DNA from: Geobacter metallireducens GS-15
GTDB taxonomy: Bacteria; Desulfobacterota; Desulfuromonadia; Geobacterales; Geobacteraceae
Direction: 5' to 3'
DNA length: 32,000 bases
Assembly: GCF_000012925.1 (NCBI RefSeq)
Contig: NC_007517.1
Span: forward strand, 2,490,001-2,522,000
Part shown: piece after piece, positions 3,076-29,142 of the stretch
How positions within the stretch are numbered: the first letter of the stretch is position 1
Layout: each line of letters begins with the position of its first letter
The notes under the pieces: generated by a model
Told to the model about the DNA's origin: nothing
The model's input: only the letters and a program-made list of their open reading frames with translations
Database searches by the model: none
Translations under genes and position numbers: made by a program

Positions 3076-3948
3076 CTATTTTTTGCTGTAATCAAACCAT
3101 CCCTTACCCGTCTTGCGCCCAAAATGACCAGCGTCCACCTTCCGGACCAGGGCTGGCCGCGGCAGGAACCTGTCACCGTAAATCCCGTGGAAAATGCGGG
3201 CGATCTTCAGGTTCAGTTCATTGCTGATCTGGTCCATCAAGGCAAAGGGCCCGACCGGATGACCAAGACCTAGTTGGCAGGCCTTGTCGATGTCTGCCGC
3301 CGAGGCCACATTCTCTTCAAGGAGCCGGATCGCCTCATCGTTGATGGCGCCCAGGATCCTGTTGACGACGAAACCGGCACAGTCGTTCACCTTTATCGGC
3401 TCTTTGCCGATACTGGTACAAAACGCACACGCGGTCTCCACCGTTTCCGCCGAGGTATCCTCGCCATTGACGACCTCGACCAGCTTCATGATGGCGGCTG
3501 GCGAGAAGAAGTGCATCCCCACGAAGCGCGACTTCCTTTCGGCGGAACTGAAACACGCCCCGAGTTTCGTGATGGGGAGGGAAGAGGTATTGGAGGCGAT
3601 GATGCACGAAGGCTTGCACACCTCTTCCAATTGCCTGAAATTCTGGGATTTCACGTCGAGATCCTCGAAGATTGCCTCGATGACGAGATCCACATCGCCG
3701 AATCCGCTGAAATTGTCAACGGGGGTTATCCTGGCTACGGCACTTTTCTGCTGCTCAGCGTCAACCGCAAGGCGCCCCTTCTCCGACCACTTTGCCAGAC
3801 TCCCCCTGATCCGTTCCACGCCAGCTGCGGCAAGATCAAGACTCACTTCTTTCAGGAGCACGTCATACCCCGCCAGGGCACAGCTAAGAGCGATATCGCT
3901 TCCCATCATCCCTGCACCCAGTATTGCCACCTTTTTTATGTCACCCAT
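3076..3948 (-). CDS. 3-hydroxyacyl-CoA dehydrogenase (Hbd/FadB-type, NAD-binding)
   Basis: MGDIKKVAILGAGMMGSDIALSCALAGYDVLLKEVS Rossmann N-terminus and GHPVGPFALMD C-domain motif. I chose the internal ATG at 3948, which is preceded by AAGGAGA at 7-nt spacing, rather than the track start at 3969. Confidence 0.9.
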   Translation of the reverse strand: MGDIKKVAILGAGMMGSDIALSCALAGYDVLLKEVSLDLAAAGVERIRGSLAKWSEKGRLAVDAEQQKSAVARITPVDNFSGFGDVDLVIEAIFEDLDVKSQNFRQLEEVCKPSCIIASNTSSLPITKLGACFSSAERKSRFVGMHFFSPAAIMKLVEVVNGEDTSAETVETACAFCTSIGKEPIKVNDCAGFVVNRILGAINDEAIRLLEENVASAADIDKACQLGLGHPVGPFALMDQISNELNLKIARIFHGIYGDRFLPRPALVRKVDAGHFGRKTGKGWFDYSKK

Positions 3949-4080
3949 CGTACGATCTCCTTTGCACAAACATGATTTTGCATGACGAAATCACAAATTT
4001 ACTTACGGGGTCGAACCCTGTGCCACAGGATCGTAGTCACTCCACATCCCCATCGGGCGATTACTCGCCATATCAGGCAA

Positions 4081-4872
4081 CTATTTGACGTTCTTCGTCT
4101 CGCCACCAAGGAACCGTGCAAAGGCACCCTGCATGTACTGCGTGGCAAAGACCGTCGGCATGAATCGTTCTGCCTCCTGATATCCTTCAACTGCTTTCCG
4201 GTTCAGCAGTGTCTTGATAAAGGTCTTGGCAACATGGCTTTTTTCAGCGATACGCTCGGCAAGCTCTTCGCATCGGGGAAGGAGTTCGTTGTCTTCATAG
4301 ACATCCACCACAATACCGAGACGCTGCGCTTCATCGGCATCCAGTTCTTTTGCCGAGAAACAGAGGTAGGCGGCCACATTCTTACCGTACTTTTCCAGAC
4401 CGCGGGTAATACACCAGGCAGGAATGGCGCCATGATTTATTTCCTTGAGGGCAAACTTGGCGCTCTTGGCGGCAAAGACCATATCGCAGCAACCGGAAAT
4501 TTCGAAGCCAAAACCGAATGCCGCACCATTCACGGCTGCAATGATCGGCGTTTCAGCAAGTTCAATGGCCTTGAATGGCTCAAAACAGAGCTTGATGAAA
4601 TCAAAACCAGCTTCAACCTTGCCAACAGTTGCAAACTGCTCCACATCGGCCCCTGCGGAAAACACCGGATAATCGGTCCCTTTTTTCGGATGCTTGAAGG
4701 TCTGGCCCGTCAGGACGATGCAGCCTACCTTCTTGTCCGCGTCAAGTTCCCGCACTGCAGCAGCCAGTTCCTTGAAAATCTGGGCATTGGCGGCATTGAA
4801 CTTGTCCGGACGGTTGAAGGTAATGATGCCGTAGTTTTTCTTCCTTTCAACCTTGAAAACGGTATACTTCAT
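4081..4872 (-). CDS. enoyl-CoA hydratase/isomerase (crotonase) family protein
   Basis: GIITFNRPDKFNA N-terminus. Both canonical catalytic Glu positions are present (GFGFEIS and ALKEINHGAIP). AAGGAGA RBS. Confidence 0.9.
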   Translation of the reverse strand: MKYTVFKVERKKNYGIITFNRPDKFNAANAQIFKELAAAVRELDADKKVGCIVLTGQTFKHPKKGTDYPVFSAGADVEQFATVGKVEAGFDFIKLCFEPFKAIELAETPIIAAVNGAAFGFGFEISGCCDMVFAAKSAKFALKEINHGAIPAWCITRGLEKYGKNVAAYLCFSAKELDADEAQRLGIVVDVYEDNELLPRCEELAERIAEKSHVAKTFIKTLLNRKAVEGYQEAERFMPTVFATQYMQGAFARFLGGETKNVK

Positions 4873-4945
4873 TGTTAGTCATCTCCTTTCGGCTAACAGC
4901 CATAATCGTATCAATATTCCCCCTTCGAGGGGGCCTGGTTCCCCG

Positions 4946-6745
4946 CTACACTGAATCCCATTCCTCTTGAAGGATATCGGGAAGCTTGACGGCCCGTTCC
5001 TTTCCACTCATGAAATCGAGCCGGCGAATCCCCTTGGGATCGATCTTGCCGATCAATTCCTGTTCCTGCTTGGTCGGAGGCTCCGTGACCGGGCAATCGG
5101 CCGCGATTTCCACGGGAAAGCCGGTGTTTTTGACCACATCTTCCGGTGTAACCCCTTTATGAAGGGAGACGATCTTCCACTTGCCACGTTCCCTCATTTC
5201 CATGACGCACAGGTTGGTCACCACGATCATCGGTCCCGGCTGCAGTCCCTGGGCCAACCGCTCTTCATCGTTCAGGTAGACCCGCGTGCCAGTTATATAA
5301 TTCACCTTGGGGACAAAAATCTGTTTCGAGTGGTTGGGAAAGTAGGCAACCGACTTGCGGTGCAGTCCGAAGACGACCGGCGCACCGGCCCCGCCGGGGA
5401 GCCTGAGTCCCCTGGCATTGAATTCGCCGGTTGGCTTCCCCTCGGCATCCATGACCGGCATCGGCAGCCAGGAGATGTTGATGTCGCCGTTGGCATCCAT
5501 CTGGGCGCTCGACACCGCCTCCACGTCGCCGGTACCCCGGAAATGGAGGGCCTCGATGCATTCGGTCATGGACCAGAGTCCCGCCGAGTTGCCGATACAG
5601 GCCGCTTCCGATGTATGGAACCCCATCTGGAACGGATAGGCATCCACGCCGCTGTAGCCGACCATGAACGAGTTGGGGGCCGTGGTCAGTTTTGCCAGGT
5701 TGTAGGCAGCGTATGCCAGGGGGGTGAATGAGCCGAGCACCGTCGTATCCCCGTCGTCAATGGTACGGGCCAGGCTGGTGACCATCTGGTCGGCGACCTC
5801 ATACTCTTCGGCTTTATCGTTAACCAGCTTCTGGGGCCATTCAACACGGGTTGTCTGCCGTGCGAGGGATTGCAGCTTTTTCTTGGCGGCATCGCCGCCA
5901 GCCTTCGCCCAATACTCGTCCTCATTCTTTCCGACCGTTGCGGCGATATACTCTTTGGCCGTTTTCGGATTGAGCCCCTGCACATCCCGGTTCATCTGAA
6001 GGAGGTGGGCAGAGTAATACGGTATGGAACTACAGGGACTGGCACCGAAGGGGACATGAATGACCATGTCGACATCGGTGCGGAAGAGCTTGGTGGCAGT
6101 TTTGTCAGCCCGGATCTGGTCTCCCGAGACGATCTCCTCTACCGTGACTATCGTCTTCTTTGCGGCCATGGCCATGTCAAGGTCGGAGGCCGATGTGCCG
6201 AAGATCTGGACGTTACCCTGCTCGTCGGCGCGCTGGGCATGGATCACCGCCACATCAGGCACAATAGCCTGGATGGCGGTCAGCTCCTTGCCGGTAAAGG
6301 GACAGGCGACGGTCTTGTATAGCTCCGGCGCCTCCTTGACGATATCCGACCCCTTGGGCCCCATGAAGGGAGCAAAGGGGAGGCCAAGACGCGCGGCTTC
6401 AAGACCCTTAATCATGCTGCACCCTTCGATCTCGGTCAATTTTACCAACTGTCTCTCAGCGACGCGTCGGAAATTGGCCGGAAGCCCGAAAAACTCGAGG
6501 CTGAGGAAACTGAAGACCAGGTGATCGACGCACCCGGCACCCAGCAGCCATTCCATCTCCCAACCGCCGACAATCGACATTACCTTGAGGTTGGTTATAT
6601 TCTGACGGGCTATCTCACGGATAACAGCCATCGGCTTGTTGCAGCTCCAGCCACCGCCAAAAGCGACAAACGCCCCTGGTGTGATGAATCTGCCGATGTC
6701 AGAAAGCTGCCCGATCTTTGATGTAAGTTCTATCTTTTTGCCCAT
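4946..6745 (-). CDS. family-I CoA-transferase with fused alpha and beta subunits (glutaconate/3-oxoacid CoA-transferase-like)
   Basis: 599 aa from the ATG at 6745 (GGAGA RBS). This start avoids overlap with the upstream SDR that ends at 6807. The N-terminal half looks like an A-subunit (FVAFGGGWSCNKPMAVIREIA). The C-terminal half looks like a B-subunit (TTVLGSFTPLAYAAYNLAK...). Confidence 0.85.
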   Translation of the reverse strand: MGKKIELTSKIGQLSDIGRFITPGAFVAFGGGWSCNKPMAVIREIARQNITNLKVMSIVGGWEMEWLLGAGCVDHLVFSFLSLEFFGLPANFRRVAERQLVKLTEIEGCSMIKGLEAARLGLPFAPFMGPKGSDIVKEAPELYKTVACPFTGKELTAIQAIVPDVAVIHAQRADEQGNVQIFGTSASDLDMAMAAKKTIVTVEEIVSGDQIRADKTATKLFRTDVDMVIHVPFGASPCSSIPYYSAHLLQMNRDVQGLNPKTAKEYIAATVGKNEDEYWAKAGGDAAKKKLQSLARQTTRVEWPQKLVNDKAEEYEVADQMVTSLARTIDDGDTTVLGSFTPLAYAAYNLAKLTTAPNSFMVGYSGVDAYPFQMGFHTSEAACIGNSAGLWSMTECIEALHFRGTGDVEAVSSAQMDANGDINISWLPMPVMDAEGKPTGEFNARGLRLPGGAGAPVVFGLHRKSVAYFPNHSKQIFVPKVNYITGTRVYLNDEERLAQGLQPGPMIVVTNLCVMEMRERGKWKIVSLHKGVTPEDVVKNTGFPVEIAADCPVTEPPTKQEQELIGKIDPKGIRRLDFMSGKERAVKLPDILQEEWDSV

Positions 6746-6806
6746 GGGCTTCCTATCTCCTCTCGTTACGTAAGTAGCAGTTTGTAGCCGGGAGAAAACA
6801 CCGTCA

Positions 6807-7571
6807 CTAGCCGGCCGACCACCCTCCATCCAGCGGCAGTACCGCACCGGTCATGAAACTCGATGCATTGGACGAAAGGTAGATAACGAGACCGACCAGT
6901 TCCTCCACATTCCCCCAGCGGTTCACCGGTGTCTTGGACATGATCAGCTTGGTGGTCGCCTCATCCTCCATGGCATCCTTGTTGATGTCAGTGGAAAAGT
7001 AGGATGGTGCGATGGCATTCACCGTAATACCGCGTGTCGCCCATTCCTGCGCCAGACATTTGGTCATGGCGTTGATCCCCCCCTTGGAAGCGGCGTAGGG
7101 AACCATGTAGGGAAGCGGATAACTCCCCATGGCCGAGGAGATATTGATCACTCGCCCGGCTTTTGCCTTGAACATGTGCTGGCCGACGATCTGGGTACAG
7201 AGGAAATAACCCTTGAGGTTAACATCCAGGATCTGGTCCCACTGCTCATCGGTCCATTTCAGGAACGGCACCGTCCACCCCTGTCCCGCGTTGTTGACGA
7301 GGATGTCGATCTTGCCGAACGCCTCCATCGTCTTTGCCGCCAGGTTTTCAATCGATCCCCGGTCGAGCATGTCAGTAGCGACGGCAAGCGATTTGCGCCC
7401 CAGAGCTCTTATCTCCTCGGCCACTGCATCCAGGTCGGCCTGGGTACGACTGGCAACGACCACGTCGGCGCCCGCCTGAGCGAGCCCCAGGGCAATGGCT
7501 TTGCCGAAACCACGGCTCCCTCCGGTTACTATGGCAACCTTCCCCTCCAGATTGAATATGTCCAGACTCAT
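6807..7571 (-). CDS. short-chain dehydrogenase/reductase (SDR)
   Basis: KVAIVTGGSRGFGKAIA (TGxxxGxG), NNAG, and a Ser...YAASK catalytic triad. Confidence 0.9.
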   Translation of the reverse strand: MSLDIFNLEGKVAIVTGGSRGFGKAIALGLAQAGADVVVASRTQADLDAVAEEIRALGRKSLAVATDMLDRGSIENLAAKTMEAFGKIDILVNNAGQGWTVPFLKWTDEQWDQILDVNLKGYFLCTQIVGQHMFKAKAGRVINISSAMGSYPLPYMVPYAASKGGINAMTKCLAQEWATRGITVNAIAPSYFSTDINKDAMEDEATTKLIMSKTPVNRWGNVEELVGLVIYLSSNASSFMTGAVLPLDGGWSAG

Positions 7572-7642
7572 ATGCTCTCCCTTAAATAGAATTGTTGCTT
7601 TTTTCCGAACAGTCCCGACAGCTCTTCATGCACACCGAGACG

Positions 7643-8440
7643 TTATGCTCCCGTGAAATTCGCCTTCCGTTTTTCCAGAAATGCGGCGGTCCCTTCCTTT
7701 GAATCCTGCGTTGCAAAGGTCTTGGCAAACTGGGTCAACTCCTTGTCAATGCCGGATAAAAGATCGTGGTCCAGCACCAGGTTGACACAATCCTTCGCCC
7801 ATTTAACCATCAGGGGGCTTTTCCCCATGATCGCCTTGGCAAGCCGTGCAACCGCAGCATCGAGTCCTTCAGGCTCGACAACCTCATTCACCAACCCCCA
7901 TTTGCAGGCATCGGCCGCATTAATCGGCTTTCCGGTCAGGATCATCTCCATCGCCTTTGCCTTACCGACGATCCTGGGAAGCCGCTGGCTCGCCCCTCCG
8001 CCGGTGATGATCCCAAGGTTGATTTCAGGCTGGGCAAATGACGCCCGCGTCGTACATATCCGGAAATCGCACCCCAGCGCTATCTCGCTCCCCATCCCCC
8101 AAGCCATGCCATCTACTGCCGCAATGACCGGCAGAGGAATTTTTTCCAGCGACGTTGGGCTGAAATGATGGTCAAGGATCTCCTTAACCTTTTCCCAGCC
8201 CTGCTCCGCAGAGATCTTTGACCAGGAATTGAGCATGTTTATGTCCGCGCCGGCGAGGAAGTTTTCACCACTCCCTTTAAGAACGAGAACACGCAGTGAA
8301 GTATCGGATCCGACATCCGCCACGGCAGCCTTCAACTCCTGAGACATCTGCTCGCTGTAGGCGTTGAATACCTTGGGACGGTTAAACGTTATGGTGGCAA
8401 TGCCATCTTTCTTGTCCAGAATGATAGTCTCAAAAGACAT
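7643..8440 (-). CDS. enoyl-CoA hydratase (crotonase family)
   Basis: IATITFNRPKVFNA N-terminus. Both catalytic Glu positions are present (GMGSEIAL, AQPEINLG). I prefer the ATG at 8440 with an AAAGGTGA RBS over the GTG at 8449. Confidence 0.9.
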   Translation of the reverse strand: MSFETIILDKKDGIATITFNRPKVFNAYSEQMSQELKAAVADVGSDTSLRVLVLKGSGENFLAGADINMLNSWSKISAEQGWEKVKEILDHHFSPTSLEKIPLPVIAAVDGMAWGMGSEIALGCDFRICTTRASFAQPEINLGIITGGGASQRLPRIVGKAKAMEMILTGKPINAADACKWGLVNEVVEPEGLDAAVARLAKAIMGKSPLMVKWAKDCVNLVLDHDLLSGIDKELTQFAKTFATQDSKEGTAAFLEKRKANFTGA

Positions 8441-8485
8441 GGGATTCACCTTTCGACCAGTTGTTTTGTTTATGCTGCTACGGCA

Positions 8486-8893
8486 CTAGCGCAAGCTGAC
8501 CTTGCCCACATTTTCCTTGATGTATTCGGCAACGGTTTCTCCCGGCAGGCCGGAAATGAAGCATTTGTGAATGCCGATCTTCTCCAGTTCTTCGAAATCC
8601 ACCTCGGGGATAATGCCACCGATTATCACCAGGACATCAGTCATACCGTTTGCCTTGAGAGCAGGGATCAGCTTCTTGGCAATCAGCATGTGTCCGCTCG
8701 TCATGATGCTGAGCGCAATCACGTTAACATCTTCCTGGATCGCCGCCGTGACGATGTCGTCAACCGTGCCGAAGCGGAAATAGACCACCTCCATGCCCGC
8801 ATCCCGCAGTTCTCGCGCGATCAGCTTGCTAGCGCGACCATGGACGTCGATTTTTTTCTTTGCCAATAGTACTTTTATGTGTTGATTGGACAT
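8486..8893 (-). CDS. cobalamin-binding small subunit of an acyl-CoA mutase
   Basis: KVLLAKKKIDVHGRASKLIARELRDAGMEVVY matches the LAKxGxDGHDRG B12-binding motif. Asp and His are conserved (DVHGRA). IQEDVNVIALS and VIIGGIIP motifs are also present. I chose the ATG at 8893 behind a GAGGTG RBS. Confidence 0.9.
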   Translation of the reverse strand: MSNQHIKVLLAKKKIDVHGRASKLIARELRDAGMEVVYFRFGTVDDIVTAAIQEDVNVIALSIMTSGHMLIAKKLIPALKANGMTDVLVIIGGIIPEVDFEELEKIGIHKCFISGLPGETVAEYIKENVGKVSLR

Positions 8894-8971
8894 ACCATTC
8901 ACCTCGAATTATCAATCTTCATTGAAGTAGTAGACTCTGCGCGCACAATCCCTGTTACCGACAGAACCAGC

Positions 8972-10642
8972 CTATTCCGTCACTACCCAACCGAACACAT
9001 CCCGCATCACCTGGCACATCTCGCCGTTCGTAGCCCCCTTCAGCGCAGCTTCCACCAGAACCGGCATCAATTCACCCTGGCCATCCCGCAGTTCCAGACA
9101 GGCATTCTTCACCGTTGCCAGGGCCTTGTCCACATCCCCCTGGTTCCGTTTGGCCTTGAACGCCTTCAACCTTTCCAGTGCCTTCACTTCCAGAGCGGTG
9201 TCAACCTTGAATGGTTCATAGTTGTCTTTTCTGTCCATGACATACTTGTTAAGGCCCACCACCGGTTGTTTGCCGCTCTTGATCTTGACCTTGGTTGCAT
9301 AGGCGCTGTTGTCGATGGCCCGCTTGATGCTGCCGTCAGCGAGACCTTGCCTATAGCCTCCCTGCTCTTCCAGTTCGTTGTATATCTTCCAGGCAGCCTG
9401 CTCCATCTGATCGGTTAATGCTTCAATGTAATAGGACCCTGCCAGGGGATCTGCCACATCCGGCAACCCGCTCTCCCACATCATGATCTGCTGGGAGCGT
9501 AAGGCTGTCCGGTGCGACAGTTCCGTCGGGATGCCAATCGTTTCGTCGTAGGAGCAGGAATGTATCGACTGTACCCCCCCCATGACTGCCGCCATGAGTT
9601 GCATGGTGATGCGCGCCGTGTTGTTGAGAGGTTGCTGGGCGGTCAGCACATTGCCACTGGTATGGACATGCACCCGGGCATGCATGCACTGGGGCTTGGT
9701 GCAGCCGGCGTCTCTGGTTATTTTCGCCCACATCCGCCGATGGGCCCGCAGCTTGGCGACCTCCTCGAAGAAATTCATCTGGATGCCGATCTGGAAACCC
9801 ATGCGCCCAACAAAACTGTCCGGTTCAAGCCCACGCTCCTTACAGGCATCGATAATCGACTTGCCCCAGGCCAAACCATACGCCAGTTCCTGGACCGGCG
9901 TGGCACCAGCCTCTGACAATCCGTACATGAACAGGTTGGCCGTGTTCCAGGCGGGGATATTGTTGGAACAGTACCTGATAAGGTCGGTCATAAGCAGATA
10001 GCCATTTTTCGGCTCCCATGAAGGGATGTCCTGAACAGCGGTCCGCGGATACCAGTTCATGGAGTTGCCATGAAGAACCCCGGGTTCCTCGCCGCGCCGG
10101 ATTGCGGCTGCCGTTATCAGTGCCAGGGCGGGGAGACAGTTATCGCCGGTTATCAGCGAAAAATTAGTCGTGTTGAGATCCCACCCCTGGATAAGGTCAT
10201 CATAGTCTTCCACGGTACAGAGGGTGACGCCGCATTGCCCGACGTTGCCTTCGGCCTCGGGATGGTCGGAATCGATGCCGTACATGGACGGGATATCCAG
10301 TACCATGTTGAACACCTTGTTGCCGAAATACCCCTCCATCCCTTGGGCAACCAGGGTCTCCATCTTCTTCCTGGTTTCCTCGACTGTCCCGTAACCGAAA
10401 ACCATCTGCTGCATCCAGGGGGTCAGGGCGTAACCGTCGGGGTAGAGGCCGCGGGTATAGGGGTAAACCCCGGGCATGGTTGCCAGGTCAAGCCCCTGGA
10501 TGTCTTCCTGGGTATAGACCGTTTTCAGGGGGATGCCCGACAGGTTTTCCCGTTGCTTCAGCTTGGCAACGTATTTTGCCCGGGCTTTCTCCCAATCCTC
10601 TTTCACCTTGGAAAAATTTTCATTAGCAACAGGACTACTCAT
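8972..10642 (-). CDS. acyl-CoA mutase large (substrate-binding TIM-barrel) subunit, methylmalonyl-CoA mutase family, divergent
   Basis: Family motifs YPYTRG, GIDSDHP, SEAGATPVQELAY, NFFEEVAKLRAHRRMWAKI, TAQQPLNNTARIT and DPLAGSYYIEALT. There is no C-terminal B12 domain, which is supplied by the separate 8486..8893 gene. GGAGGAG RBS. Confidence 0.9.
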   Translation of the reverse strand: MSSPVANENFSKVKEDWEKARAKYVAKLKQRENLSGIPLKTVYTQEDIQGLDLATMPGVYPYTRGLYPDGYALTPWMQQMVFGYGTVEETRKKMETLVAQGMEGYFGNKVFNMVLDIPSMYGIDSDHPEAEGNVGQCGVTLCTVEDYDDLIQGWDLNTTNFSLITGDNCLPALALITAAAIRRGEEPGVLHGNSMNWYPRTAVQDIPSWEPKNGYLLMTDLIRYCSNNIPAWNTANLFMYGLSEAGATPVQELAYGLAWGKSIIDACKERGLEPDSFVGRMGFQIGIQMNFFEEVAKLRAHRRMWAKITRDAGCTKPQCMHARVHVHTSGNVLTAQQPLNNTARITMQLMAAVMGGVQSIHSCSYDETIGIPTELSHRTALRSQQIMMWESGLPDVADPLAGSYYIEALTDQMEQAAWKIYNELEEQGGYRQGLADGSIKRAIDNSAYATKVKIKSGKQPVVGLNKYVMDRKDNYEPFKVDTALEVKALERLKAFKAKRNQGDVDKALATVKNACLELRDGQGELMPVLVEAALKGATNGEMCQVMRDVFGWVVTE

Positions 10643-10722
10643 ATTTACTCCTCCGTTTCTATTCGTATGGGGCGGGAACCCGTGGCGTCGGCATGAAGCT
10701 TAATTCCAGGATATTTTGTCGA

Positions 10723-11715
10723 CTATCTGTTGTTCCGTGGCGTCGTGCCATTGTCTGCAAGGATTCTCGCTTTTTCAACGAGATCAACAACCTGTTCAGA
10801 TGCACTGTATGGATCAAGTTTCAGATTCTCTATTTTGTTGATCCACTTCTGCAGATCCCTATCTGTTTTCAATGTTTCCAAGAATCTGTCCCTCACCTGC
10901 TGTGTAAGAATGTCCAGAAATTGCCTGCTTCTTCGTTTTTGACATATGCCGGTAAAAATATTCCGTTCCGTTATAAACATCAGGTGCTCAAAAATCACCG
11001 TTACAAGGTCTTCTACTCCATCTCCCTTCAACGCAGACACTTTGGCAATCGGTACTCCCCATTGATCGGCCTTGATGTTTGCACACTGAAACTCTTTCCC
11101 CCCATAGGTGACCGGCATCTCGAAACTTAAATCGTTTACCGCTCCATCCGCACCCGGCTGATCAGACTTATTCACCACCAGGATATCGCCGATCTCCAGG
11201 ATTCCGGCCTTCATCGCCTGGAGGGAATCCCCGTATCCCGGAACCAGGGTCAGAACCACCGTATGGGCAATCTTGGCAATATCCATCTCCACCTGACCGA
11301 CCCCCACGGTTTCAACAATGATGACCTCCTTGCCAAAGGCATCGAGCACATCGACCGCATCGTTGATCACTGGTGCCAACCCACCGCTGGCGCCTCGAGC
11401 TGAGAAAGAACGAATAAATACCCCGTTGTCGCCTGAGAACTCTGTCATCCTGGCACGGTCGCCAAGGATTGCTCCGTCGCTAAACGGGCTGGATGGATCG
11501 ACTGCCAGAACACCTACTGTTTTTCCGCGCCTTCTTATCTCCCTGACGAGTGCTGCAACCAGGCAACTTTTCCCTGCCCCCGGTGGTCCGGTTATCCCGA
11601 TGACATGAGCTCTGCCGCATTTGCAGTAGAGACCTTTCAACTCCTCGATCCCTTCCGGATTCCGCCGTTCGAGCAGGGAGATCAGCCGGGAAATGGATCT
11701 GTCCAGGGTTTTCAA
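10723..11715 (-). CDS. meaB: MeaB/ArgK-type G-protein metallochaperone for B12 mutases
   Basis: P-loop GITGPPGAGKS, VLAVDPSSPFSDGAILGDRARM and VVNKSD (NKxD). The start codon is TTG, as the sequence reads TTGAAAACC. It overlaps the upstream stop in a TTGA junction. Confidence 0.85.
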   Translation of the reverse strand: MKTLDRSISRLISLLERRNPEGIEELKGLYCKCGRAHVIGITGPPGAGKSCLVAALVREIRRRGKTVGVLAVDPSSPFSDGAILGDRARMTEFSGDNGVFIRSFSARGASGGLAPVINDAVDVLDAFGKEVIIVETVGVGQVEMDIAKIAHTVVLTLVPGYGDSLQAMKAGILEIGDILVVNKSDQPGADGAVNDLSFEMPVTYGGKEFQCANIKADQWGVPIAKVSALKGDGVEDLVTVIFEHLMFITERNIFTGICQKRRSRQFLDILTQQVRDRFLETLKTDRDLQKWINKIENLKLDPYSASEQVVDLVEKARILADNGTTPRNNR

Positions 11716-13559
11716 AACGATTTGTCCACCGCCTCCCAGGCCGAGACGTCGCCCCAGGCAAGAGCGGCTATTTTGCCGTCGGTGACCGGCAGGATATTGC
11801 CGATAAAGAACTGGGCGCTCCTGATTTTTCCGTCCAGAAAGGCAGCGTCCGTGTTCTTCTGAATGAATGACTTCCTGCTCTCCGCATCTTCAAGCTTCTT
11901 CTTGAGAAACAGTTCCTCGAGTTGCCCGTGCGCAACCACTGCGCCCCAAAGGAGAAACCACGCCACAACCACATCCCCGAAGGCCTCCAGGAAAGGGGTC
12001 GCCTTGAGATAGGAATAGTGCACTCCGTTTGCTTCGGCCCCTTCGGCAAGGTGGGCCGGTATACCCGCCAGAGCTGATTTCGTGCGCTCGAACTGCTCGA
12101 TATGCTTCTTCAAGCCGGGCAGTTCTGCTGCACGGTTTACCATCCCATCCATATCCTTCAGGAATTCCGCAAAGACCTGCCCCTTTTTCATCCTGATCTT
12201 ACGCAAAGCCAGGTCCATTGCCTGTATTCCCGTTGTCCCCTCGAAAATGCAGGCAACTTTGGAATCCCGCATGAACTGTTCGACCGGATACTCCTGGGTA
12301 TAACCGTATCCCCCATATACCTGGATGGCGTGGGAAGCGAATTCCACCCCCTTCTCCGTGGGGTAAGCCTTGCAGAGCGGTATCAGCAAATCGACAATCC
12401 CCTGCAGCTTCTTTTTCTCTTCCTCGTTGTCGACGACTGCCATCCGGTCCATGGCGTAGCCGCAGTAATAGAGCATCGCCCGCATCCCCTGAATGTACGA
12501 TTTCATCATGAGGAGCGTACGACGAATATCAGGATGGTGAATAATCGGAACCTGTCCGGAATCCGGATCAGCGATACTCTGACCCTGCCGTCTCTCCAGG
12601 GCGTACCTCAGTGCATGCATGTAGGAAACCGAGCAGGTCCCCTGGCCCCACATCCCCACCTCGAGCCGCGAGGCATTCATCATGTGGAACATGATCTTGA
12701 TGCCATCCTGCTCCTTGCCAAGGAGGTAGCCAGTGCAGCACCCCTTTTCGCCAAACGACATGGTAGTGGTCGGCGATGCCTTGATCCCCATCTTGTGTTC
12801 GATGCCAATACACTTGACGTCGTTCGCCTCCCCTAGAGATCCGTCAGAATTGATCTTGAATTTGGGAACAATAAAGATCGACAACCCCTTGGTCCCCGCC
12901 GGATCCCCTTCAATCCTGGCTAGAACCATATGTACCGTGTTCTCACACACGTCGCTGTCGCCGTTGGTAATGAATATCTTCTGACCAACCAGCGAATAGG
13001 TACCATCCGTGTTTCTCGTCGCCTTGAACTCGATGTTCCCCACGTCCGAACCCGCCGCAGGTTCCGTCAGGGCCATCGTGCCGAGCCACTCACCCCCGTA
13101 CATCTTGTGCAGATACTGACTCTTCTGCTGTTCCGAGCCGAAAAGTTCAATGAGTTTGGCGGCATCGTGAGTAAGGTTGACGTAGCACATGAACGGGAAG
13201 TTGGCGGCAAAGAACATCTCATGGGCCGCATTCTTGATGACATGGGGGAGTCCCTGGCCGCCAAGGGTCTCCTCTTCGCAAGCAGTGAGCCAGCCGTTCT
13301 CAACGAAGCTCTGGTAAGCCTCTGCCGTACCGGGAACCGAATAAACTTCTCCCCCCTCAAAGCGGGCACCGACCTTGTCCCCTTCGATATTCAGCGGGAA
13401 CAACACCTTTTCGGCAAACTTGCTCGCCTCTGAAAGCAGCAATCCCAGGACTTTCTCGTTCCATCCGGAAAAACGGTCGGACGCACACAGGTCCTGGACT
13501 TTTAACTGCTCAAAAAGGGCGAATTTCACATCACGTTCATCGACTAACAGATTTGCCAT
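11712..13559 (-). CDS. long-form acyl-CoA dehydrogenase (about 615 aa, with N- and C-terminal extensions, FadE/DmdC-like)
   Basis: LTEPAAGSDVG, QKIFITNGD and VYGGYGYTQEYPVEQFMRDSKVACIFEGTTGIQ. I chose the ATG at 13559 (MANLLVDERD). The track start at 13664 would overlap the upstream crotonase gene. Confidence 0.9.
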   Translation of the reverse strand: MANLLVDERDVKFALFEQLKVQDLCASDRFSGWNEKVLGLLLSEASKFAEKVLFPLNIEGDKVGARFEGGEVYSVPGTAEAYQSFVENGWLTACEEETLGGQGLPHVIKNAAHEMFFAANFPFMCYVNLTHDAAKLIELFGSEQQKSQYLHKMYGGEWLGTMALTEPAAGSDVGNIEFKATRNTDGTYSLVGQKIFITNGDSDVCENTVHMVLARIEGDPAGTKGLSIFIVPKFKINSDGSLGEANDVKCIGIEHKMGIKASPTTTMSFGEKGCCTGYLLGKEQDGIKIMFHMMNASRLEVGMWGQGTCSVSYMHALRYALERRQGQSIADPDSGQVPIIHHPDIRRTLLMMKSYIQGMRAMLYYCGYAMDRMAVVDNEEEKKKLQGIVDLLIPLCKAYPTEKGVEFASHAIQVYGGYGYTQEYPVEQFMRDSKVACIFEGTTGIQAMDLALRKIRMKKGQVFAEFLKDMDGMVNRAAELPGLKKHIEQFERTKSALAGIPAHLAEGAEANGVHYSYLKATPFLEAFGDVVVAWFLLWGAVVAHGQLEELFLKKKLEDAESRKSFIQKNTDAAFLDGKIRSAQFFIGNILPVTDGKIAALAWGDVSAWEAVDKSF

Positions 13560-13602
13560 GGCATCCGTCTTTCTTTTGTGGAGGATTGAACACCTGTGTC
13601 TA

Positions 13603-14391
13603 CTAACCCTTGTTGAAGACCGGCTTGCGCTTTTCCAGGAAGGCCAGAGTCCCTTCCTGTGCATCTGCTGTCAGGAGGATTTTGCAGAACTGGTCCTGCT
13701 CGTAATCGATCCCCCCACGGAGAGGTAGATCACCCCCTTCGTAGACCAGCTTCTTGCAGATATCCAGCACTACCGCTCCCTTGTCGATCAGCCTGCCGGC
13801 AAACGCGTTGACCGCCTCCATCAACTCATCGCGGGGGACCACCTGGTTGACAAGGCCAATCCTGTAGGCCTCCTGGGCATCAATGGGGTCGCCGGTGGAA
13901 ATCATCTCCAGCGCCCTGGTCGGCCCGACAAGTTCCCGCAGACGCTGGCTCCCCCCTGCACCGGGAATGATGCCGAGCTTTACCTCGGGCTGGCCGAATT
14001 GGGCTTTTTCTGCTGCAATCCGAAAATCACAGGCCATGGCAAGCTCGCATCCCATGCCAAAGGCAAGACCGTTTACTGCAGCAATGGTCGGCTTGGGACA
14101 ATCCTCTATCATATTCGGATTGACCAGTTGCCTGAGATCCTCCTTGATCTTTGCGGCATTCCCCAACTTGGTCCAGCCATTGACCATATTGATGTCCGCA
14201 CCGGCCATGAACGCCTTGCCGGCACCGGTCAATACGATTGCCCTCACCGATTTGTCCGCTACAAGCTCGTTGAATCCCGTTATAATATCTGCGGCAAGGG
14301 TCCGGTTGTATGCATTCAATACCTCTGGCCGATTAAAAGTCAGAACTCCAACTGCTCCGTTACGCTCCAGCATGATTGCTTCATAACTCAT
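13603..14391 (-). CDS. enoyl-CoA hydratase (crotonase family)
   Basis: VGVLTFNRPEVLNA N-terminus. Both catalytic Glu positions are present (GMGCELAM, GQPEVKLG). Confidence 0.9.
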   Translation of the reverse strand: MSYEAIMLERNGAVGVLTFNRPEVLNAYNRTLAADIITGFNELVADKSVRAIVLTGAGKAFMAGADINMVNGWTKLGNAAKIKEDLRQLVNPNMIEDCPKPTIAAVNGLAFGMGCELAMACDFRIAAEKAQFGQPEVKLGIIPGAGGSQRLRELVGPTRALEMISTGDPIDAQEAYRIGLVNQVVPRDELMEAVNAFAGRLIDKGAVVLDICKKLVYEGGDLPLRGGIDYEQDQFCKILLTADAQEGTLAFLEKRKPVFNKG

Positions 14392-14423
14392 TATCCGACC
14401 CTCTCTTCCTATCAGTTATCCGA

Positions 14424-14452
14424 ATAGTACGACCGTTCGGTTTACATGTCAA
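14424..14452 (-). promoter_or_regulatory. sigma-70-type internal promoter (TTGACA-17-TACTAT) with an embedded operator-like dyad half
   Basis: The minus strand reads TTGACA tgtaaaccgaacggtcg TACTAT. The -35 is at 14447..14452 and the -10 at 14424..14429. The spacer contains TAAACCGAACGGTCGTAC, which is related to the 17591..17610 dyad. The element lies in the 100-bp thiolase-crotonase gap. Confidence 0.55.
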
Positions 14453-14491
14453 GTACAAAAATTCCTGTTCTTAAATTTTTTCGAGAAGGTT

Positions 14492-15670
14492 TCAGATCAT
14501 CTCTATGACCGTTGCCATTGCCGGTCCACCACCGACACAGAGGGAAGCAACCCCGTATCTACCTTGCCGCCGTTTCATCTCTTCCAGCATGGTCACGATG
14601 ATCCGTATCCCCGTGCACCCAACGGGGTGCCCCAGGGCAATCCCCGACCCGTTCGCATTCACACGGGAGAGGTCGATGTTCAGCTCACGATTCACGGCCA
14701 GAAATTGGGCCGCAAAGGCTTCGTTGATTTCAAAGTAGTCGATGTCTTTCATCTGCAGGTCGGCATATTTCAAAGCCTTGGGAATGGCATAGGCCGGCCC
14801 GATTCCCATGATCTCCGGTGCAACACCGAAGGAAGCCGTAGCCCGTATCCGGGCAATGGGGCTCACCCCAAGCTCCCTGGCCCGCCTTGCTGTCATGAGC
14901 ACAAGCGCGGCAGCACCATCGTTGATGCTCGAAGCGTTGCCCGCCGTGACCGTGCCATCTTTTTTGAATGCCGGTCTCAGGGCGGCCAGCTTCTCCCGGC
15001 TCATGTCCGCCCGGGGATGCTCATCGGTGTCGATGACGATGGTCCCCTTGCGACTCTTCACTTCCACCGGCACGATTTCAGCCCTGAATTTCCCTGACTC
15101 CGCGGCCGCAACGGCCCGCTGATGGCTCAACAAAGCCAGATCATCCTGTTCCTCGCGGGAAATGCCGTATTTCTCCGCCAGGTTCTCAGCGGTTATCCCC
15201 ATGTGCGTACCGCTGAAAGCATCGATCAACGCATCGTGCAGAAGATGATCCTCGATAGAATCTGAACCGAGGCGCAGGCCCTGACGGGCATTGAGGAGCA
15301 GATAGGGAGCCTGGGACATGCTCTCCATCCCTACAGCAACACCTACAGACGTCTTCCCAAGGAGTATCTGCTGCGAGGCGATTTCCAGTGCCCGCATGGC
15401 TGACCCGCACAACTGCTCCACCGTAGTGGCTGCCCCCTCGAGAGGTATTCCCGTCTTGAGCTGGACCTGGCGCGCCGGGTTCCCCTTGGCTCCTGCCTTG
15501 TAGATCATCCCCCCGACAACCTCTTCCACCAGTTCCGGACCAATCCCGGCCTTTTTCAAGGCCCCCTGAACGGCAGCAATGCCCAGATCCACCGCGGACA
15601 CATCCTTGAGTGCCCCCATGAAATCTCCAATCGCCGTACGGGCTGCTCCGACTATGACTGCTTCTTCCAT
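14492..15670 (-). CDS. acetyl-CoA C-acetyltransferase (thiolase II)
   Basis: [24 protein letters not shown] (nucleophilic Cys), [15 protein letters not shown] and [10 protein letters not shown] chose the ATG at 15670, which has a GGAGG RBS. Confidence 0.9.
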
Positions 15671-15727
15671 GAAATCGGCCTCCAGTTTGCGTAGTTTCAC
15701 TGCTGCATAAAATCAAGAACTATTTCA

Positions 15728-16042
15728 TCACGCCTTTTTTCTGACAGTGCCGAGAGAGCCCCGAATCTCCGCAAGTATCGCGGCTGCAAGATCCGCCTCC
15801 GGTAATTTCCTGCCATTTAAGGTTGTACAGACCAGGGTCACCGTCGGCCCGGTAAAAAGCGGGCTGGCGGCGCACGCTACGGAACAGCCGCTGGCAACCA
15901 GCACCAGGTCGACAGACGGGCAATCTCCCCACACCCATTCGATATCAGGGGCAAGCGCCTGTACCTTCCTGACAATCCCGGGCGTATCCACCTCAGGGTT
16001 GCAGTTGCCGCAATACTTGACACAGACCCTGAAATGCCCCAT
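15728..16042 (-). CDS. small Cys-rich hypothetical protein (104 aa), possible metal/FeS-binding protein
   Basis: The ORF starts 7 nt after the abfD-like stop. The N-terminus MGHFRVCVKYCGNCNPE carries Cx3Cx2C, and there are four further Cys residues. I recognise no family. Coding status rests on the tight spacing and codon look only. Confidence 0.5.
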   Translation of the reverse strand: MGHFRVCVKYCGNCNPEVDTPGIVRKVQALAPDIEWVWGDCPSVDLVLVASGCSVACAASPLFTGPTVTLVCTTLNGRKLPEADLAAAILAEIRGSLGTVRKKA

Positions 16043-16049
16043 GGCCCCG

Positions 16050-17501
16050 CTATTTTTCTTCCTTTATGCCGGCCAGTTTCTTGGCAAGCTTTACCTTATG
16101 GCCGAGATTTGCCTGGCGGAGGATCATGACTCTCTGCGCCTGGGGAGAGCCGGCACCATGCATGCTTTCCACCAAAGCCGTGCCGCCCGTCATATTTTCA
16201 ACGAGCCGGGCCATCCGCATGCGCTCTTCAGTGGGAGCTTCGTCCACCCCCCGGAAATACTTCTCTACATATTTGCCGATCTCATCGTGGTGCAGATCCT
16301 TCTCCGAAGGCATGGTTGCCATGCAGCCACCGGAAATATCGTGGGAAAGGCGTGCAATCTCATAGATGAAACGGGTCACGTTCTGCTTAACCGTATTGGC
16401 CAGCAGGGGATTGACGAAATAGGCCCCTGACGGCGTGGGAGCACCCTCACAGGAGCAGGCGATGGAACCGCAATAAAGGGTCTCGGTGAGGTGGACCATC
16501 TCCACGATCTTGTCACGCACGTGGGAAGCCTTGGCTGCTCCGTTGTACTCTGCCATAGCGGTAGTTGCGCCGATGATCACATCGCTCACGCCTGCCTTGC
16601 ATCCACCATAGTTCTGTCGATGATAGCTCGCGAAACGCTCAACCAGCAGCCCCGCATACTTGTACTCTCCGCACATGAAGACGCGTTCCCACGGGACGAA
16701 GACATCTTCAAGTATGGTCAAAGCCTCGCCTCCGACAGTTCCATACTCAGCATTACCCTGATCAAGGTCTCCCTTTTCCAGACGGCGTGTATCGTTGGTT
16801 TGACGACCAAAGATATGGATGACACCGGGGGAATCCGTGGGGAGAGCACAGGCAACCGCATAGTCGCCGTCCTCCTCCCCCATGGCCATGGTTGGCATAA
16901 TCAGCATTTCATGGGAATTGACAATTCCGGTCTGGTGAACCTTTGCCCCACGAATGACTATCCCCTTGTCATTCTTTGCCACCACGTGCACGAACATGTC
17001 CGGGTCTTTCTGTTTTGCCGGAGGCAGCCCCCTGTCCCCCTTGGGATCGGTCATTGCTCCCGCCACCATCAGGTCATTGTCCTGTATATATTCGAGGTAA
17101 CGCCTAAAACGCTGGTGATAGTCGGTACCAAGCTCCTGGTCCATCTCATAGGTTACCGTATAGTTAGCGTTCAGGGCATCCCACCCCACACAGCGCTGGT
17201 AGCAACTTCCCGTCTTCCCTGCAATAAGCCGCAACATCTTCACCTTTTTTATGAGATCGTCGGTGCTCTGGTGGATATGGGTGAAGCGGCTGATTTTACT
17301 CCCCGTCAGGTGTGAGGTGGCTGTGACGAGCGCTTCCGTGGTCGGATCATGGGCCAAGTCGAACGTCAATGCAGCCGCATTGATATGGGGCTGGAACAAT
17401 GGGTGATCTACTATGCTGTCAATCTTCTCTCCAAAGGCATAGACTTTGATATTGAGCGCCCGAAGGCTTTCCCGGTAGGAATTCCCATCTCTTAGTGCCA
17501 T
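16050..17501 (-). CDS. abfD: 4-hydroxybutyryl-CoA dehydratase / vinylacetyl-CoA delta-isomerase family enzyme
   Basis: Collinear with my recollection of Clostridium aminobutyricum AbfD over the whole length (YRESLRALNIKVYAFGEKI, HQSTDDLIKKVKMLRL, MTDPKGDRGLPPAKQKDPD, ESMHGAGSPQAQR). The FeS ligand positions are conserved (GSCYQRCVG, YHRQNYGGCKAG). GGAGGT RBS. Confidence 0.9.
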   Translation of the reverse strand: MALRDGNSYRESLRALNIKVYAFGEKIDSIVDHPLFQPHINAAALTFDLAHDPTTEALVTATSHLTGSKISRFTHIHQSTDDLIKKVKMLRLIAGKTGSCYQRCVGWDALNANYTVTYEMDQELGTDYHQRFRRYLEYIQDNDLMVAGAMTDPKGDRGLPPAKQKDPDMFVHVVAKNDKGIVIRGAKVHQTGIVNSHEMLIMPTMAMGEEDGDYAVACALPTDSPGVIHIFGRQTNDTRRLEKGDLDQGNAEYGTVGGEALTILEDVFVPWERVFMCGEYKYAGLLVERFASYHRQNYGGCKAGVSDVIIGATTAMAEYNGAAKASHVRDKIVEMVHLTETLYCGSIACSCEGAPTPSGAYFVNPLLANTVKQNVTRFIYEIARLSHDISGGCMATMPSEKDLHHDEIGKYVEKYFRGVDEAPTEERMRMARLVENMTGGTALVESMHGAGSPQAQRVMILRQANLGHKVKLAKKLAGIKEEK

Positions 17502-25608: not shown

Positions 25609-25689
25609 TCATCGCCTCCTCGGCTAACGACATCGCTGCCACCCACGACAGCGCTTTCCAGCGAAACTTTTCTTTCAATTGTTACACTA

Positions 25690-29136: not shown

Positions 29137-29142
29137 AAACAA

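Follow-up and report, generated by a model that had tools for sequence, protein, structure and literature searches.

An orphan B12-dependent acyl-CoA mutase subfamily linked to two 4-hydroxyacyl-CoA dehydration systems and its possible role in straightening branched C4 acids in Geobacter metallireducens and relatives

A 32,000-nt stretch of DNA from Geobacter metallireducens GS-15 (contig NC_007517.1, positions 2,490,001 to 2,522,000 of the forward strand; hereafter the window) raises the question of why a B12-dependent acyl-CoA mutase is encoded in one row with a 4-hydroxybutyryl-CoA dehydratase (AbfD) and enzymes of beta-oxidation. An earlier note on this stretch had described thirteen minus-strand genes and proposed a six-step scheme, in which isobutyrate or methacrylate is activated, 3-hydroxyisobutyryl-CoA is formed and rearranged by the mutase to 4-hydroxybutyryl-CoA, and AbfD leads on through crotonyl-CoA to two acetyl-CoA. 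The open reading frame (ORF) listing and Pfam scans returned 13 ORFs, all on the minus strand and in the same direction between positions 3076 and 17501, in agreement with the coordinates and families given there. They are transcribed in the order abfD, Cys-rich ORF, thl (thiolase), ech3 (crotonase, ECH), ACAD (acyl-CoA dehydrogenase), meaB, mutL, mutS, ech2, SDR (short-chain dehydrogenase/reductase), CoAT (CoA-transferase-like), ech1 and hbd. When relatives of the locus were compared, one mutase subfamily proved to be associated with two unrelated systems that convert 4-hydroxyacyl-CoA to enoyl-CoA. Read most simply, this means that the mutase would either form or consume a 4-hydroxyacyl-CoA.

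The mutase itself was examined for its type. The large subunit, MutL, matched PF01642 over the full profile (534 bits) and TIGR00641 with 444 bits (cut-off 304). The small subunit, MutS, matched PF02310 (64 bits) and contains the motifs DVHGRA, ALSIM and IIGG, the first being a variant of the His-on DxHxxG motif in which the last Gly is changed to Ala. MeaB matched TIGR00750 with 306 bits (cut-off 241), and judged by these matches MutL, MutS and MeaB form a complete B12 mutase system. Among PDB structures, the best match of MutL was HcmA (316 bits, approximately 36–38% identity), the large subunit of 2-hydroxyisobutyryl-CoA mutase (HCM), followed by methylmalonyl-CoA mutase (MCM) from human (314 bits) and P. 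shermanii (297 bits), and IcmF (143 bits). The scores with NF006944 (MCM; 402 bits, cut-off 876) and with the IcmF model (175 bits, cut-off 1500) were both below the cut-offs. The best 120 matches among 5.8 billion proteins were 64–94% identical, came from metagenome-assembled genomes (MAGs) of Desulfobacterota and from Actinobacteria, and had generic names only. In a library comprising 1.84 billion 50%-identity representatives, all members of the subfamily shared a single cluster, and the nearest representative outside it was 41% identical (454 versus 873 bits). A tblastn search of a plasmid collection gave 423 mutase-bearing records, all with less than 38% identity and without a characterised close relative. 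On this sequence evidence, the mutase belongs to no characterised type, and the hosts of its subfamily are Desulfobacterota, one gammaproteobacterial MAG and Actinobacteria. In the same library, mutase-like large subunits accounted for 15,639 of the 50%-identity representatives, and the MCM triad Y/R/H was present in only about one third of the best 150 representatives, His244 being replaced by Asn, Asp, Gly or Gln in many. As these representatives are so numerous and diverse, the subfamily is one orphan clade among many, though an unusually conserved and widespread one, and uncharacterised acyl-CoA-mutase diversity appears large.

The residues around the substrate set the subfamily apart. The MutL signature residues Q79, M80, V81, V114, I164, G166, M195, W197, Q204, Y240, G241, Q284, H327 and C363 were 99–100% invariant across 121 subfamily members, and positions that are identical in MCM and HcmA but exchanged in the subfamily were 95–100% invariant in the same members, which span several phyla. 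In literature numbering, the exchanges are R87Q, Q88M, Y89V, T166I, N168G, T195N, Q197M, D199W, R207Q, H244G, F287Q, Q330H and N366C; by this alignment, almost the entire first shell common to MCM and HcmA is exchanged. The carboxylate-binding Arg had been reported missing in the earlier note, and the alignment placed Gln204 at the position of MCM Arg207, while Tyr89 and His244 of MCM correspond to Val81 and Gly241, all three being invariant in the 121 members. In MCM, the carboxylate of the substrate is bound by Arg207 and Tyr89, and His244 acts on the thioester carbonyl. With small residues at positions 89 and 244, the pocket is wider. In isobutyryl-CoA mutase (ICM), the hallmark residues are Phe where MCM has Tyr89 and Gln where it has Arg207; the Gln is present in MutL, but the Phe is replaced by Val. 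In the case of HcmA, Ile90 and Asp117 reportedly touch the substrate and its hydroxyl group, and MutL has Val81 and Val114 there. The RcmA pocket residues I95, V122, V172, H174, Y252 and F296 (B. massiliosenegalensis numbering, supplementary Fig. 6 of PMC11599936) correspond to V, V, I, G, Y and Q in MutL when mapped by numbering offset only.

Two further groups of mutases were noted beside the subfamily. The sister clade at 41% identity (L107/L108 7400-12350, protein P0121) also has Q79, N193, M195, G241, Q284 and H327; its genes are arranged as NMO-meaB-mutL-mutS-ECH near an aldehyde:ferredoxin oxidoreductase, an Fe-dependent alcohol dehydrogenase (Fe-ADH), AMP ligases and a sigma-54 regulator, and it has the appearance of a further orphan mutase pathway, perhaps one acting on an alcohol. 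A second mutase pair with its own meaB lies immediately upstream of the family mutase in L005 (858-4000), L047, L052 and L060, with 32–35% (MutL) and 37–41% (MutS) identity to the family mutase.

AbfD, encoded by the first gene of the row, appears canonical. It scored 620 bits with Clostridium aminobutyricum AbfD (1U8V) and 553 bits with 6VJR, and its motifs SCYQRCVG, YHRQNYGGCKAG, GGEAL and ESMHGAGSP align with the 1U8V residues. The Fe-S and active-site motifs had been called intact, and indeed the cluster ligands Cys99, Cys103, His292 and Cys299 are kept together with the catalytic residues Tyr296, Glu257 and Glu455. The next gene encodes a 104-aa Cys-rich protein with the motifs CGxCNP...GCxxAC, which is homologous (E 3e-10) to an abfD neighbour in L040 (1235-1504) carrying a precomputed PF27236 (AF_0334) tag. 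The protein also adjoins abfD in L029, L061, L063, L065 and L067, and the L071-L087 group lacks it; this Cys-rich protein could be an accessory protein of AbfD that has not been characterised so far, perhaps for a metal or an Fe-S cluster. An AbfT-type transferase, an Fe-ADH-type 4-hydroxybutyrate dehydrogenase and a semialdehyde dehydrogenase were found in none of the abfD-bearing loci inspected, and thus there is no sign of free 4-hydroxybutyrate entering the pathway. The sole thiolase gene of the window cluster is the one in the abfD module, which makes the abfD and mutase modules interdependent there; relatives have a thiolase gene between ech1 and hbd.

Relatives of the locus were gathered using the signature peptides of the subfamily, giving 35 genome and 64 metagenome loci. 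In Desulfobacterota and the gammaproteobacterial MAG, the conserved core is (ech3-ACAD-meaB)-mutL-mutS-ech2-SDR-CoAT-ech1-(thl)-hbd with identities of 70–86%; ech2 is 69–86% identical across the non-actinobacterial core loci, and a few loci have a crotonase of 51–54% identity in its place. A second layout is mutLS-ECH-ACAD-ACAD-CoAT, in some cases followed by a gene for an old yellow enzyme (OYE), and there are variants with DUF362 or extra ACADs at the place of the SDR. A genome search for co-occurrence of abfD with this mutase subtype had been suggested in the earlier note, and the outcome was positive: of the 29 non-actinobacterial loci that extend 5 kb or more upstream of the mutase, 12 had abfD within 10 kb of it, and at least six gene orders were seen. 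Over all loci the count was 14 of 69, many contigs being short. We infer that the chance of finding abfD within 10 kb of a given gene is about 1%, at one to few copies per genome.

The gene orders are as follows. In the window, abfD lies upstream of the mutase on the same strand; it is divergent and approximately 9 kb away in L040, downstream of hbd in L011, and on the same strand just ahead of tetR in L078. An operon hbd-thl-ech1-Cys protein-abfD is divergent from mutLS in L029, L061, L063, L065 and L067 (the ech1-type crotonase being co-operonic with abfD in L061-L067), and abfD-thl is divergent from (tetR)-meaB-mutLS in L071, L080, L083, L085 and L087. The abfD genes of the relatives are 52–61% identical to that of the window. 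Given these varied layouts and identities, the association between abfD and the mutase is not one inherited block. In L065 and L067, the operon mutLS-ECH-ACAD-ACAD-CoAT, with an OYE-type gene after CoAT, is divergent from hbd-thl-ECH-Cys protein-abfD. This is the gene split that the six-step scheme predicts: the mutase, crotonase, ACADs and CoAT would make 4-hydroxybutyryl-CoA, and AbfD, the Cys-rich protein, crotonase, thiolase and Hbd would consume it.

In the actinobacterial mutase loci, abfD was found in none, and a different pair of genes stands in the neighbourhood. Of the 21 actinobacterial loci with enough flank, 16 have an APH-type kinase gene no farther than 10 kb from the mutase, and ten of these also have an ACAD with a catalytic Asp. 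In Sphaerisporangium, Microbispora, Sphaerimonospora, Thermobifida and a Streptomyces, meaB-mutL-mutS-SDR is divergent from ECH-CoAT(A,B)-SDR-ACAD-Hbd-ECH-APH; the divergent operon with APH and Asp-type ACAD occurs in Streptosporangiales, a Streptomyces and matching metagenome contigs. In locus L037, the best structural relatives of the ACAD were 4HR3 and ACAD11 (212 bits), its catalytic Asp lies in the motif RIYDGASEVH, and the APH protein scored 185 bits with the ACAD11 kinase domain. A catalytic Asp marks ACAD10/11 and LvaC (PMC12440821). By LvaA/LvaC and ACAD10/11, a 4-hydroxyacyl-CoA is phosphorylated and the phosphate is eliminated to give a 2-enoyl-CoA (PMC11342911, PMC12440821), and bacterial split orthologues have been shown to catalyse the LvaA/LvaC-type conversion (PMC11342911). 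AbfD is thus the oxygen-sensitive solution, in anaerobes, and the LvaAC type is the ATP-driven, oxygen-tolerant and non-homologous solution, in aerobes. The co-location of both with the mutase supports the presence of a 4-hydroxyacyl-CoA next to it.

Considering these associations, the mutase may interconvert 3-hydroxy-2-methylacyl-CoA and linear 4-hydroxyacyl-CoA, a reaction class that we regard as possible though somewhat short of probable. Its C4 form, a 3-hydroxyisobutyryl-CoA/4-hydroxybutyryl-CoA mutase, is suggested a little more tentatively and is favoured only because AbfD looks canonical. The rearrangement step of the earlier scheme, from 3-hydroxyisobutyryl-CoA to 4-hydroxybutyryl-CoA, is accordingly supported in its link to a 4-hydroxyacyl-CoA through abfD and LvaAC, whereas its substrate, chain length and direction are conjectural. 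The cluster probably serves, under TetR control, the catabolism of short acids that are branched or hydroxylated. In the proposed sequence, the Gct-type transferase would activate the acid, the long ACAD and the mutase-adjacent crotonase would give the 3-hydroxy-2-methylacyl-CoA, and the mutase, served by MeaB, would move the thioester group by a 1,2-shift to give the 4-hydroxyacyl-CoA. AbfD would then dehydrate 4-hydroxybutyryl-CoA to crotonyl-CoA, from which crotonase, Hbd and thiolase would give two acetyl-CoA. As a whole, this would be an undescribed and widespread route in which branched C4 units, derived from valine, isobutyrate, methacrylate or 3-hydroxyisobutyrate, would be converted to the linear crotonyl-CoA and cleaved to two acetyl-CoA, using AbfD in anaerobes and the LvaAC/ACAD10-11 type in aerobic Actinobacteria; we consider it plausible but fairly uncertain. 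C5 and longer chains may also be handled, given the lva-like actinobacterial content, and the reaction may run in reverse, from 4-hydroxyacyl-CoA to 3-hydroxy-2-methylacyl-CoA, followed by SDR oxidation and thiolase cleavage.

Several observations weigh against this proposal. The abfD gene is not part of the conserved core: it was absent within 10 kb in 17 of the 29 adequately flanked non-actinobacterial loci, among the loci lacking it being the Desulfuromonadales locus L039, whose mutase is 80% identical and which has IclR and hydrolase genes upstream of ech3. The strong ACAD11-like pair occurs in only part of the actinobacterial loci, and the more widespread second kinase, APH_a2, is only weakly ACAD11-like (59 bits). 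The actinobacterial islands contain AMP ligases and SDRs reminiscent of the levulinate (C5) pathway, and this levulinate-like content argues against a strict C4 reading. The pocket exchanges are mostly hydrophobic (V81, V114, I164, M195 and W197) and would suit an alkyl as well as a hydroxymethyl group. The SDR adjoins the mutase genes in most loci and finds no use in the minimal scheme; like the third crotonase and the OYE, it had been listed as unexplained before, and the comparison of loci did not change this. AbfD or LvaAC and the mutase could also be parallel entries into a shared crotonyl-CoA pathway, and an ICM reaction would be a simpler way to the same end products.

The part played by the CoA-transferase-like protein bears on the first step. 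CoAT scored 97 bits with GctA (1POI_A), 40 bits with GctB, 84 bits with AibA and 81 bits with IpdA, and it is homologous to the split CoATA/CoATB of Actinobacteria. It is without the SENG/ESG motif, and a conserved Glu of the beta half (TSEAA in the window, GAEAA in Actinobacteria) is a candidate catalytic residue. Since the decarboxylase AibAB and the ring hydrolase IpdAB, neither of which is a transferase, score similarly, CoA-transferase activity should not be assumed. The name CoA-transferase given to it previously holds as a family match; the glutaconate-CoA-transferase family also contains decarboxylases and ring hydrolases. CoAT-like proteins lacking the SENG motif were noted at 4946-6745 (-) in the window and at 6143-7911 in L037. 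A DUF362 protein of approximately 440–480 aa lies between the mutase-adjacent crotonase and CoAT in L041 (9797-11152), L042 (13180-14496) and L067 (14886-16337).

Other reactions would also account for parts of this evidence. If the mutase were ICM-like, it would convert isobutyryl-CoA to butyryl-CoA (or 2-methylbutyryl-CoA to valeryl-CoA), the linear product would be oxidised by ACAD, crotonase, Hbd and thiolase, and AbfD or LvaAC would be an independent entry for 4-hydroxy acids. Every gene but abfD would have a role, the abfD module is self-contained and missing from many loci, and both the Gln at the Arg207 position and the largely hydrophobic pocket agree with an ICM. In Syntrophothermus lipocalidus, the conversion of isobutyrate to two acetyl-CoA via isobutyryl-CoA mutase is established, and a related mutase group has been linked to sulfate reducers (PMC5017805). 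However, no Syntrophothermus locus was matched in the signature-peptide scan, the nearest representative outside the family is only 41% identical, and IcmF is a distant match. The ICM Phe is not kept, and His244, Gln197, Gln330, Asn366 and Phe287, common to MCM and HcmA, are all replaced; His244 is also retained in ICM-type mutases. As the linkage of two unrelated 4-hydroxyacyl-CoA systems across phyla and gene orders would moreover be left unexplained, an ICM-like hub is judged unlikely. The best PDB match points instead to an HCM/RCM-like reaction, in which 2-hydroxyisobutyryl-CoA, or a higher 2-hydroxy-2-methylacyl-CoA, would give 3-hydroxybutyryl-CoA for oxidation by SDR or Hbd and cleavage by thiolase. 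The HcmA score hardly differs from that of MCM (316 versus 314 bits), and the substrate contacts Ile90 and Asp117 are not conserved, although Val at the Asp117 position is also found in the (R)-specific RcmA (V122). RcmA I95 and V172 have conservative matches (PMC11599936, supplementary Fig. 6), but Gly and Gln stand at the apparent H174 and F296 positions, all by offset mapping. The necessary SDR, Hbd, crotonases and thiolase are present, a MaoC (R)-hydratase is encoded in L041, and an RcmAB-like mutase of Desulfococcus acts in acetone degradation (PMC7176365). Against this, the operons lack the 2-hydroxyisobutyryl-CoA (2-HIBA-CoA) ligase and the TPP lyase that accompany known HCM/RCM genes, no Kyrpidia, Bacillus, Aquincola or Desulfococcus locus was matched by the signature peptides, and the abfD/LvaAC linkage would be unexplained. 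We consider this reaction improbable.

The actinobacterial islands suggest that the mutase could work on C5 compounds at the oxo level, interconverting levulinyl-CoA and 2-methylacetoacetyl-CoA, or 4-hydroxyvaleryl-CoA and 3-hydroxy-2-methylbutyryl-CoA. The SDR would carry out the keto/hydroxy step, the thiolase would give acetyl-CoA and propionyl-CoA, and AbfD or LvaAC would serve the other enantiomer or another chain length. A full lva-like set of APH kinases, Asp-type ACAD, SDRs and AMP ligases surrounds the actinobacterial mutase, and the SDR gene directly follows mutS in Actinobacteria and ech2 in most other loci. An acetyl group would be isosteric with the carboxyl of methylmalonyl-CoA, Gln replacing Arg207, and a methylmalonyl-CoA-epimerase-like VOC protein is encoded nearby (50 bits, below the cut-off). 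But the products would equal those of the known Lva route, so that the mutase would add nothing obvious; the SDR is replaced by DUF362 or ACADs in L041, L042 and L067; the window AbfD scores 620 bits with a C4-specific enzyme; and in the literature searched, levulinyl-CoA and a mutase are mentioned together only in a propionate-production study of P. putida. We regard such a role as quite unlikely, only slightly less so than the HCM/RCM-like reaction. A larger methyl-branched or alicyclic CoA ester, the branch of which would be resolved by the mutase because it blocks beta-oxidation, has about as little in its favour as the latter. The Gct-family protein would then be an IpdAB/AibAB-like hydrolase or decarboxylase, consistent with its scores and its lack of the SENG motif, but with the conserved Glu of its beta half it may still be a transferase. 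The OYE would reduce a dienoyl or ring double bond; a FadH/BaiCD-type OYE gene is recurrent in the clusters, at the same position in L036, and OYE-type genes are also found in L042, L065 and L067. The three crotonases, the broad-range FadE5-type ACAD, the widened pocket, the SCP-x type thiolases with zf-ChsH2 partners in L040 and L041, and the SnoaL-like genes of the actinobacterial islands also fit a larger substrate. AbfD and Hbd are, however, of short-chain types, no ring-specific enzymes were identified in these clusters, and no candidate substrate could be named. Two further roles were rejected on chemical reasoning: a methacrylyl-CoA/vinylacetyl-CoA rearrangement would need a vinyl radical intermediate, and in 3-methyl-branched (isoprenoid) beta-oxidation, moving the thioester by a 1,2-shift would yield a quaternary carbon and leave the block in place.

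The proposed 3-hydroxy-2-methylacyl-CoA/4-hydroxyacyl-CoA mutase was compared with known systems. Similar to HcmAB (Aquincola tertiaricarbonis, PDB 4R3U) and RcmAB, it is a two-subunit adenosylcobalamin (AdoCbl) mutase with a MeaB-type chaperone and a substrate predicted to be neutral and not a carboxylate (Gln at Arg207), its product would feed 3-hydroxybutyryl-CoA/acetoacetyl-CoA metabolism, and Val stands at the Asp117 position as in RcmA. It differs from HcmAB in the change of Ile90 to Val, in the replacement of His244, Gln197, Gln330, Asn366 and Phe287 and in the missing 2-HIBA-CoA ligase; moreover, HCM clusters have not been reported to contain AbfD or LvaAC-type genes, to which this subfamily is linked. 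With MCM it shares the fold and the cofactor system (314 bits), and the proposed reaction would be the CH2OH analogue of the conversion of methylmalonyl-CoA to succinyl-CoA. In the archaeal 3-hydroxypropionate/4-hydroxybutyrate cycle, MCM and AbfD are both used before crotonyl-CoA and two acetyl-CoA, but MCM makes succinyl-CoA and three further steps lead to 4-hydroxybutyryl-CoA. Unlike that MCM, the subfamily lacks the Arg207/Tyr89 carboxylate site and would make the AbfD substrate directly. The C. aminobutyricum AbfD module (1U8V) has the same cluster and catalytic residues and the same crotonase, Hbd and thiolase chemistry after AbfD, whereas the window is without the AbfT transferase and the AbfH dehydrogenase and joins abfD with the AF_0334-like Cys-rich protein and the mutase operon. 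Slip_0757-0760 of S. lipocalidus likewise act in an anaerobic pathway that takes a branched C4 acid to two acetyl-CoA by B12 rearrangement and then beta-oxidation, with a MeaB-like gene adjacent (PMC5017805); here the rearrangement would take place on the 3-hydroxy compound and not on the alkyl compound, the subfamily has no ICM Phe, and identity to other mutase representatives is at most 41%. Finally, the APH kinase and Asp-type ACAD of the actinobacterial relatives, at the genomic place of AbfD, resemble LvaA/LvaC of Pseudomonas putida and mammalian ACAD10/ACAD11 (PMC11342911, PMC12440821), but such genes are not in the window, and known lva operons have no B12 mutase.

The names 4-hydroxybutyryl-CoA mutase and 3-hydroxyisobutyryl-CoA mutase do not occur in a searchable collection of 8 million papers, and literature searches on levulinyl-CoA with mutase and on isobutyrate with AbfD and mutase gave nothing relevant. 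To our knowledge, an enzyme linking 4-hydroxybutyryl-CoA and 3-hydroxyisobutyryl-CoA exists so far only as a proposal in metabolic-engineering patents, where it is a step on the way to methacrylate. What is new here is a variant enzyme system with a concrete substrate hypothesis; the mutase fold, the cofactor system and AbfD chemistry are already known. If the proposal is true, a new substrate specificity would stand beside the characterised acyl-CoA mutases MCM, ICM, ECM, HCM/RCM and PCM, valine-derived carbon would reach acetyl-CoA by a propionyl-CoA-free path in sediment Desulfobacterota and soil and compost Actinobacteria, and the subfamily could supply the enzyme postulated for methacrylate engineering. 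The subfamily is tight and recognisable by its signature peptides PWMQQMVF and HGNSMNWY, it has cultured aerobic carriers in genera such as Thermobifida (T. cellulosilytica), Microbispora, Sphaerisporangium (S. viridialbum) and Streptomyces, and the candidate substrates are few. Even with a wrong substrate guess, it is a well-defined orphan mutase with an active site unlike that of MCM or HCM at almost every first-shell position.

The features of the window are collected in Table 1. In the case of three genes, the starts given previously were longest-ORF artefacts, the ORFs themselves being right; starts were revised by homologue lengths and ribosome-binding sites, and the likely ones are 13559 for ACAD (615 aa), 6745 for CoAT (599 aa) and 3948 for hbd (290 aa). 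With the revised starts, the intergenic gaps range from -4 to 132 nt. The 4-nt overlap reported before was found again, the TTG start of meaB and the TGA stop of ACAD sharing TTGA at 11712-11715. Both catalytic Glu residues are kept in all three crotonases. NCBIfam gave no specific names, and most cluster genes had only generic sub-threshold matches; the exceptions above the cut-off were MeaB and the generic N- and C-terminal mutase domain models, which are not substrate-specific.

Table 1. Genes and candidate regulatory sites of the window (positions in the window; ORF limits in parentheses where the start was revised)
Feature	Position	Strand	Basis
FadH/BaiCD-type OYE Fe-S flavoenzyme, 230 nt downstream of hbd	779..2845	-	Pfam
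hbd, (S)-3-hydroxybutyryl-CoA dehydrogenase type	3076..3948 (ORF to 3969)	-	Pfam, NCBIfam
ech1, crotonase with 10-residue insertion and KE replacing the usual PE motif	4081..4872	-	Pfam
CoAT, fused alpha-beta glutaconate-CoA-transferase-family protein	4946..6745 (ORF to 6847)	-	Pfam CoA_trans
SDR oxidoreductase	6807..7571	-	Pfam
ech2, canonical crotonase directly after mutS	7643..8449	-	Pfam
mutS, small B12-binding mutase subunit	8486..8902	-	PF02310
mutL, large substrate-binding mutase subunit	8972..10642	-	PF01642 (MM_CoA_mutase)
meaB, G-protein chaperone, immediately upstream of mutL	10723..11715	-	TIGR00750
ACAD, FadE5/DmdC-type, long, normal catalytic Glu (IFEGTTGI)	11712..13559 (ORF to 13664)	-	Pfam
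ech3, canonical crotonase	13603..14391	-	Pfam
Promoter-like site in the 100-nt thl/ech3 gap	14424-14452	-	10/12 consensus match
thl, acetoacetyl-CoA-type thiolase	14492..15700	-	Thiolase_N + Thiolase_C
Cys-rich ORF, 104 aa	15728..16042	-	no Pfam match
abfD, 4-hydroxybutyryl-CoA dehydratase / vinylacetyl-CoA isomerase	16050..17501	-	HpaB_N/HpaB
Palindrome TACCAAACGTTCGGTA, candidate operator, after the abfD promoter-like site	17593-17608	-	pattern search
Promoter-like hexamers before abfD	17638-17610	-	promoter scan
Terminator-like hairpin near the TetR gene	17817-17838		hairpin scan
TetR-family regulator, upstream of abfD	17844..18413	-	Pfam TetR_N + TetR_C_24

As to transcription, the abfD-Cys-thl module and the module from ech3 to hbd may be separate transcripts. 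The internal promoter that the earlier note had placed between thl and ech3 was found as a site, but the 5 promoter-like sites of the region are not above shuffled controls (3.6 ± 1.9), and the hairpin scan found no terminator-like hairpin between thl and ech3. As promoter and terminator counts do not exceed those of the controls, the scan cannot settle the operon structure; the worry about an internal promoter is legitimate, yet the comparative evidence is not weakened by it. A half-site ACCGAACG of the palindrome (14427-14441) overlaps the ech3 promoter-like site, and the palindrome pattern TACCRAACGKTYGGTA had 5 strand matches in the window versus 0.16 expected, the pattern having been derived from two of those sites. 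When TACCGAACGTTCGGTA was sought in all 108 loci, it was present only in the window, and it is therefore no family-wide regulon marker. As the pattern comes from two sites and is absent from other loci, co-regulation of the abfD and ech3 promoters by the TetR protein through the palindrome is only suggested. L040 and L042 also have TetR genes ahead of their core operon, and an Rfam scan of the window found no cobalamin riboswitch and no other RNA family. A third copy of the palindrome lies at 20673-20688, between amidohydrolase and adenine-deaminase-like genes.

In the remainder of the window, an adenine-deaminase-like amidohydrolase is split into the ORFs 20765-21538 and 21577-22560 (+; 257 and 327 aa). 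In L036, whose mutase is 94% identical, an intact 595-aa adenine-deaminase-like gene directly follows the OYE gene; the split in the window may stem from a frameshift or a sequencing error or may mark a pseudogene, and the gene has changed its place relative to the cluster. A separate gene set occupies 23938-31926, comprising a sigma-54 activator with a GAF domain (-), a crotonase, a 536-aa FAD_binding_2 flavoprotein and an SDR (+), as well as a 909-aa molybdopterin oxidoreductase (-).

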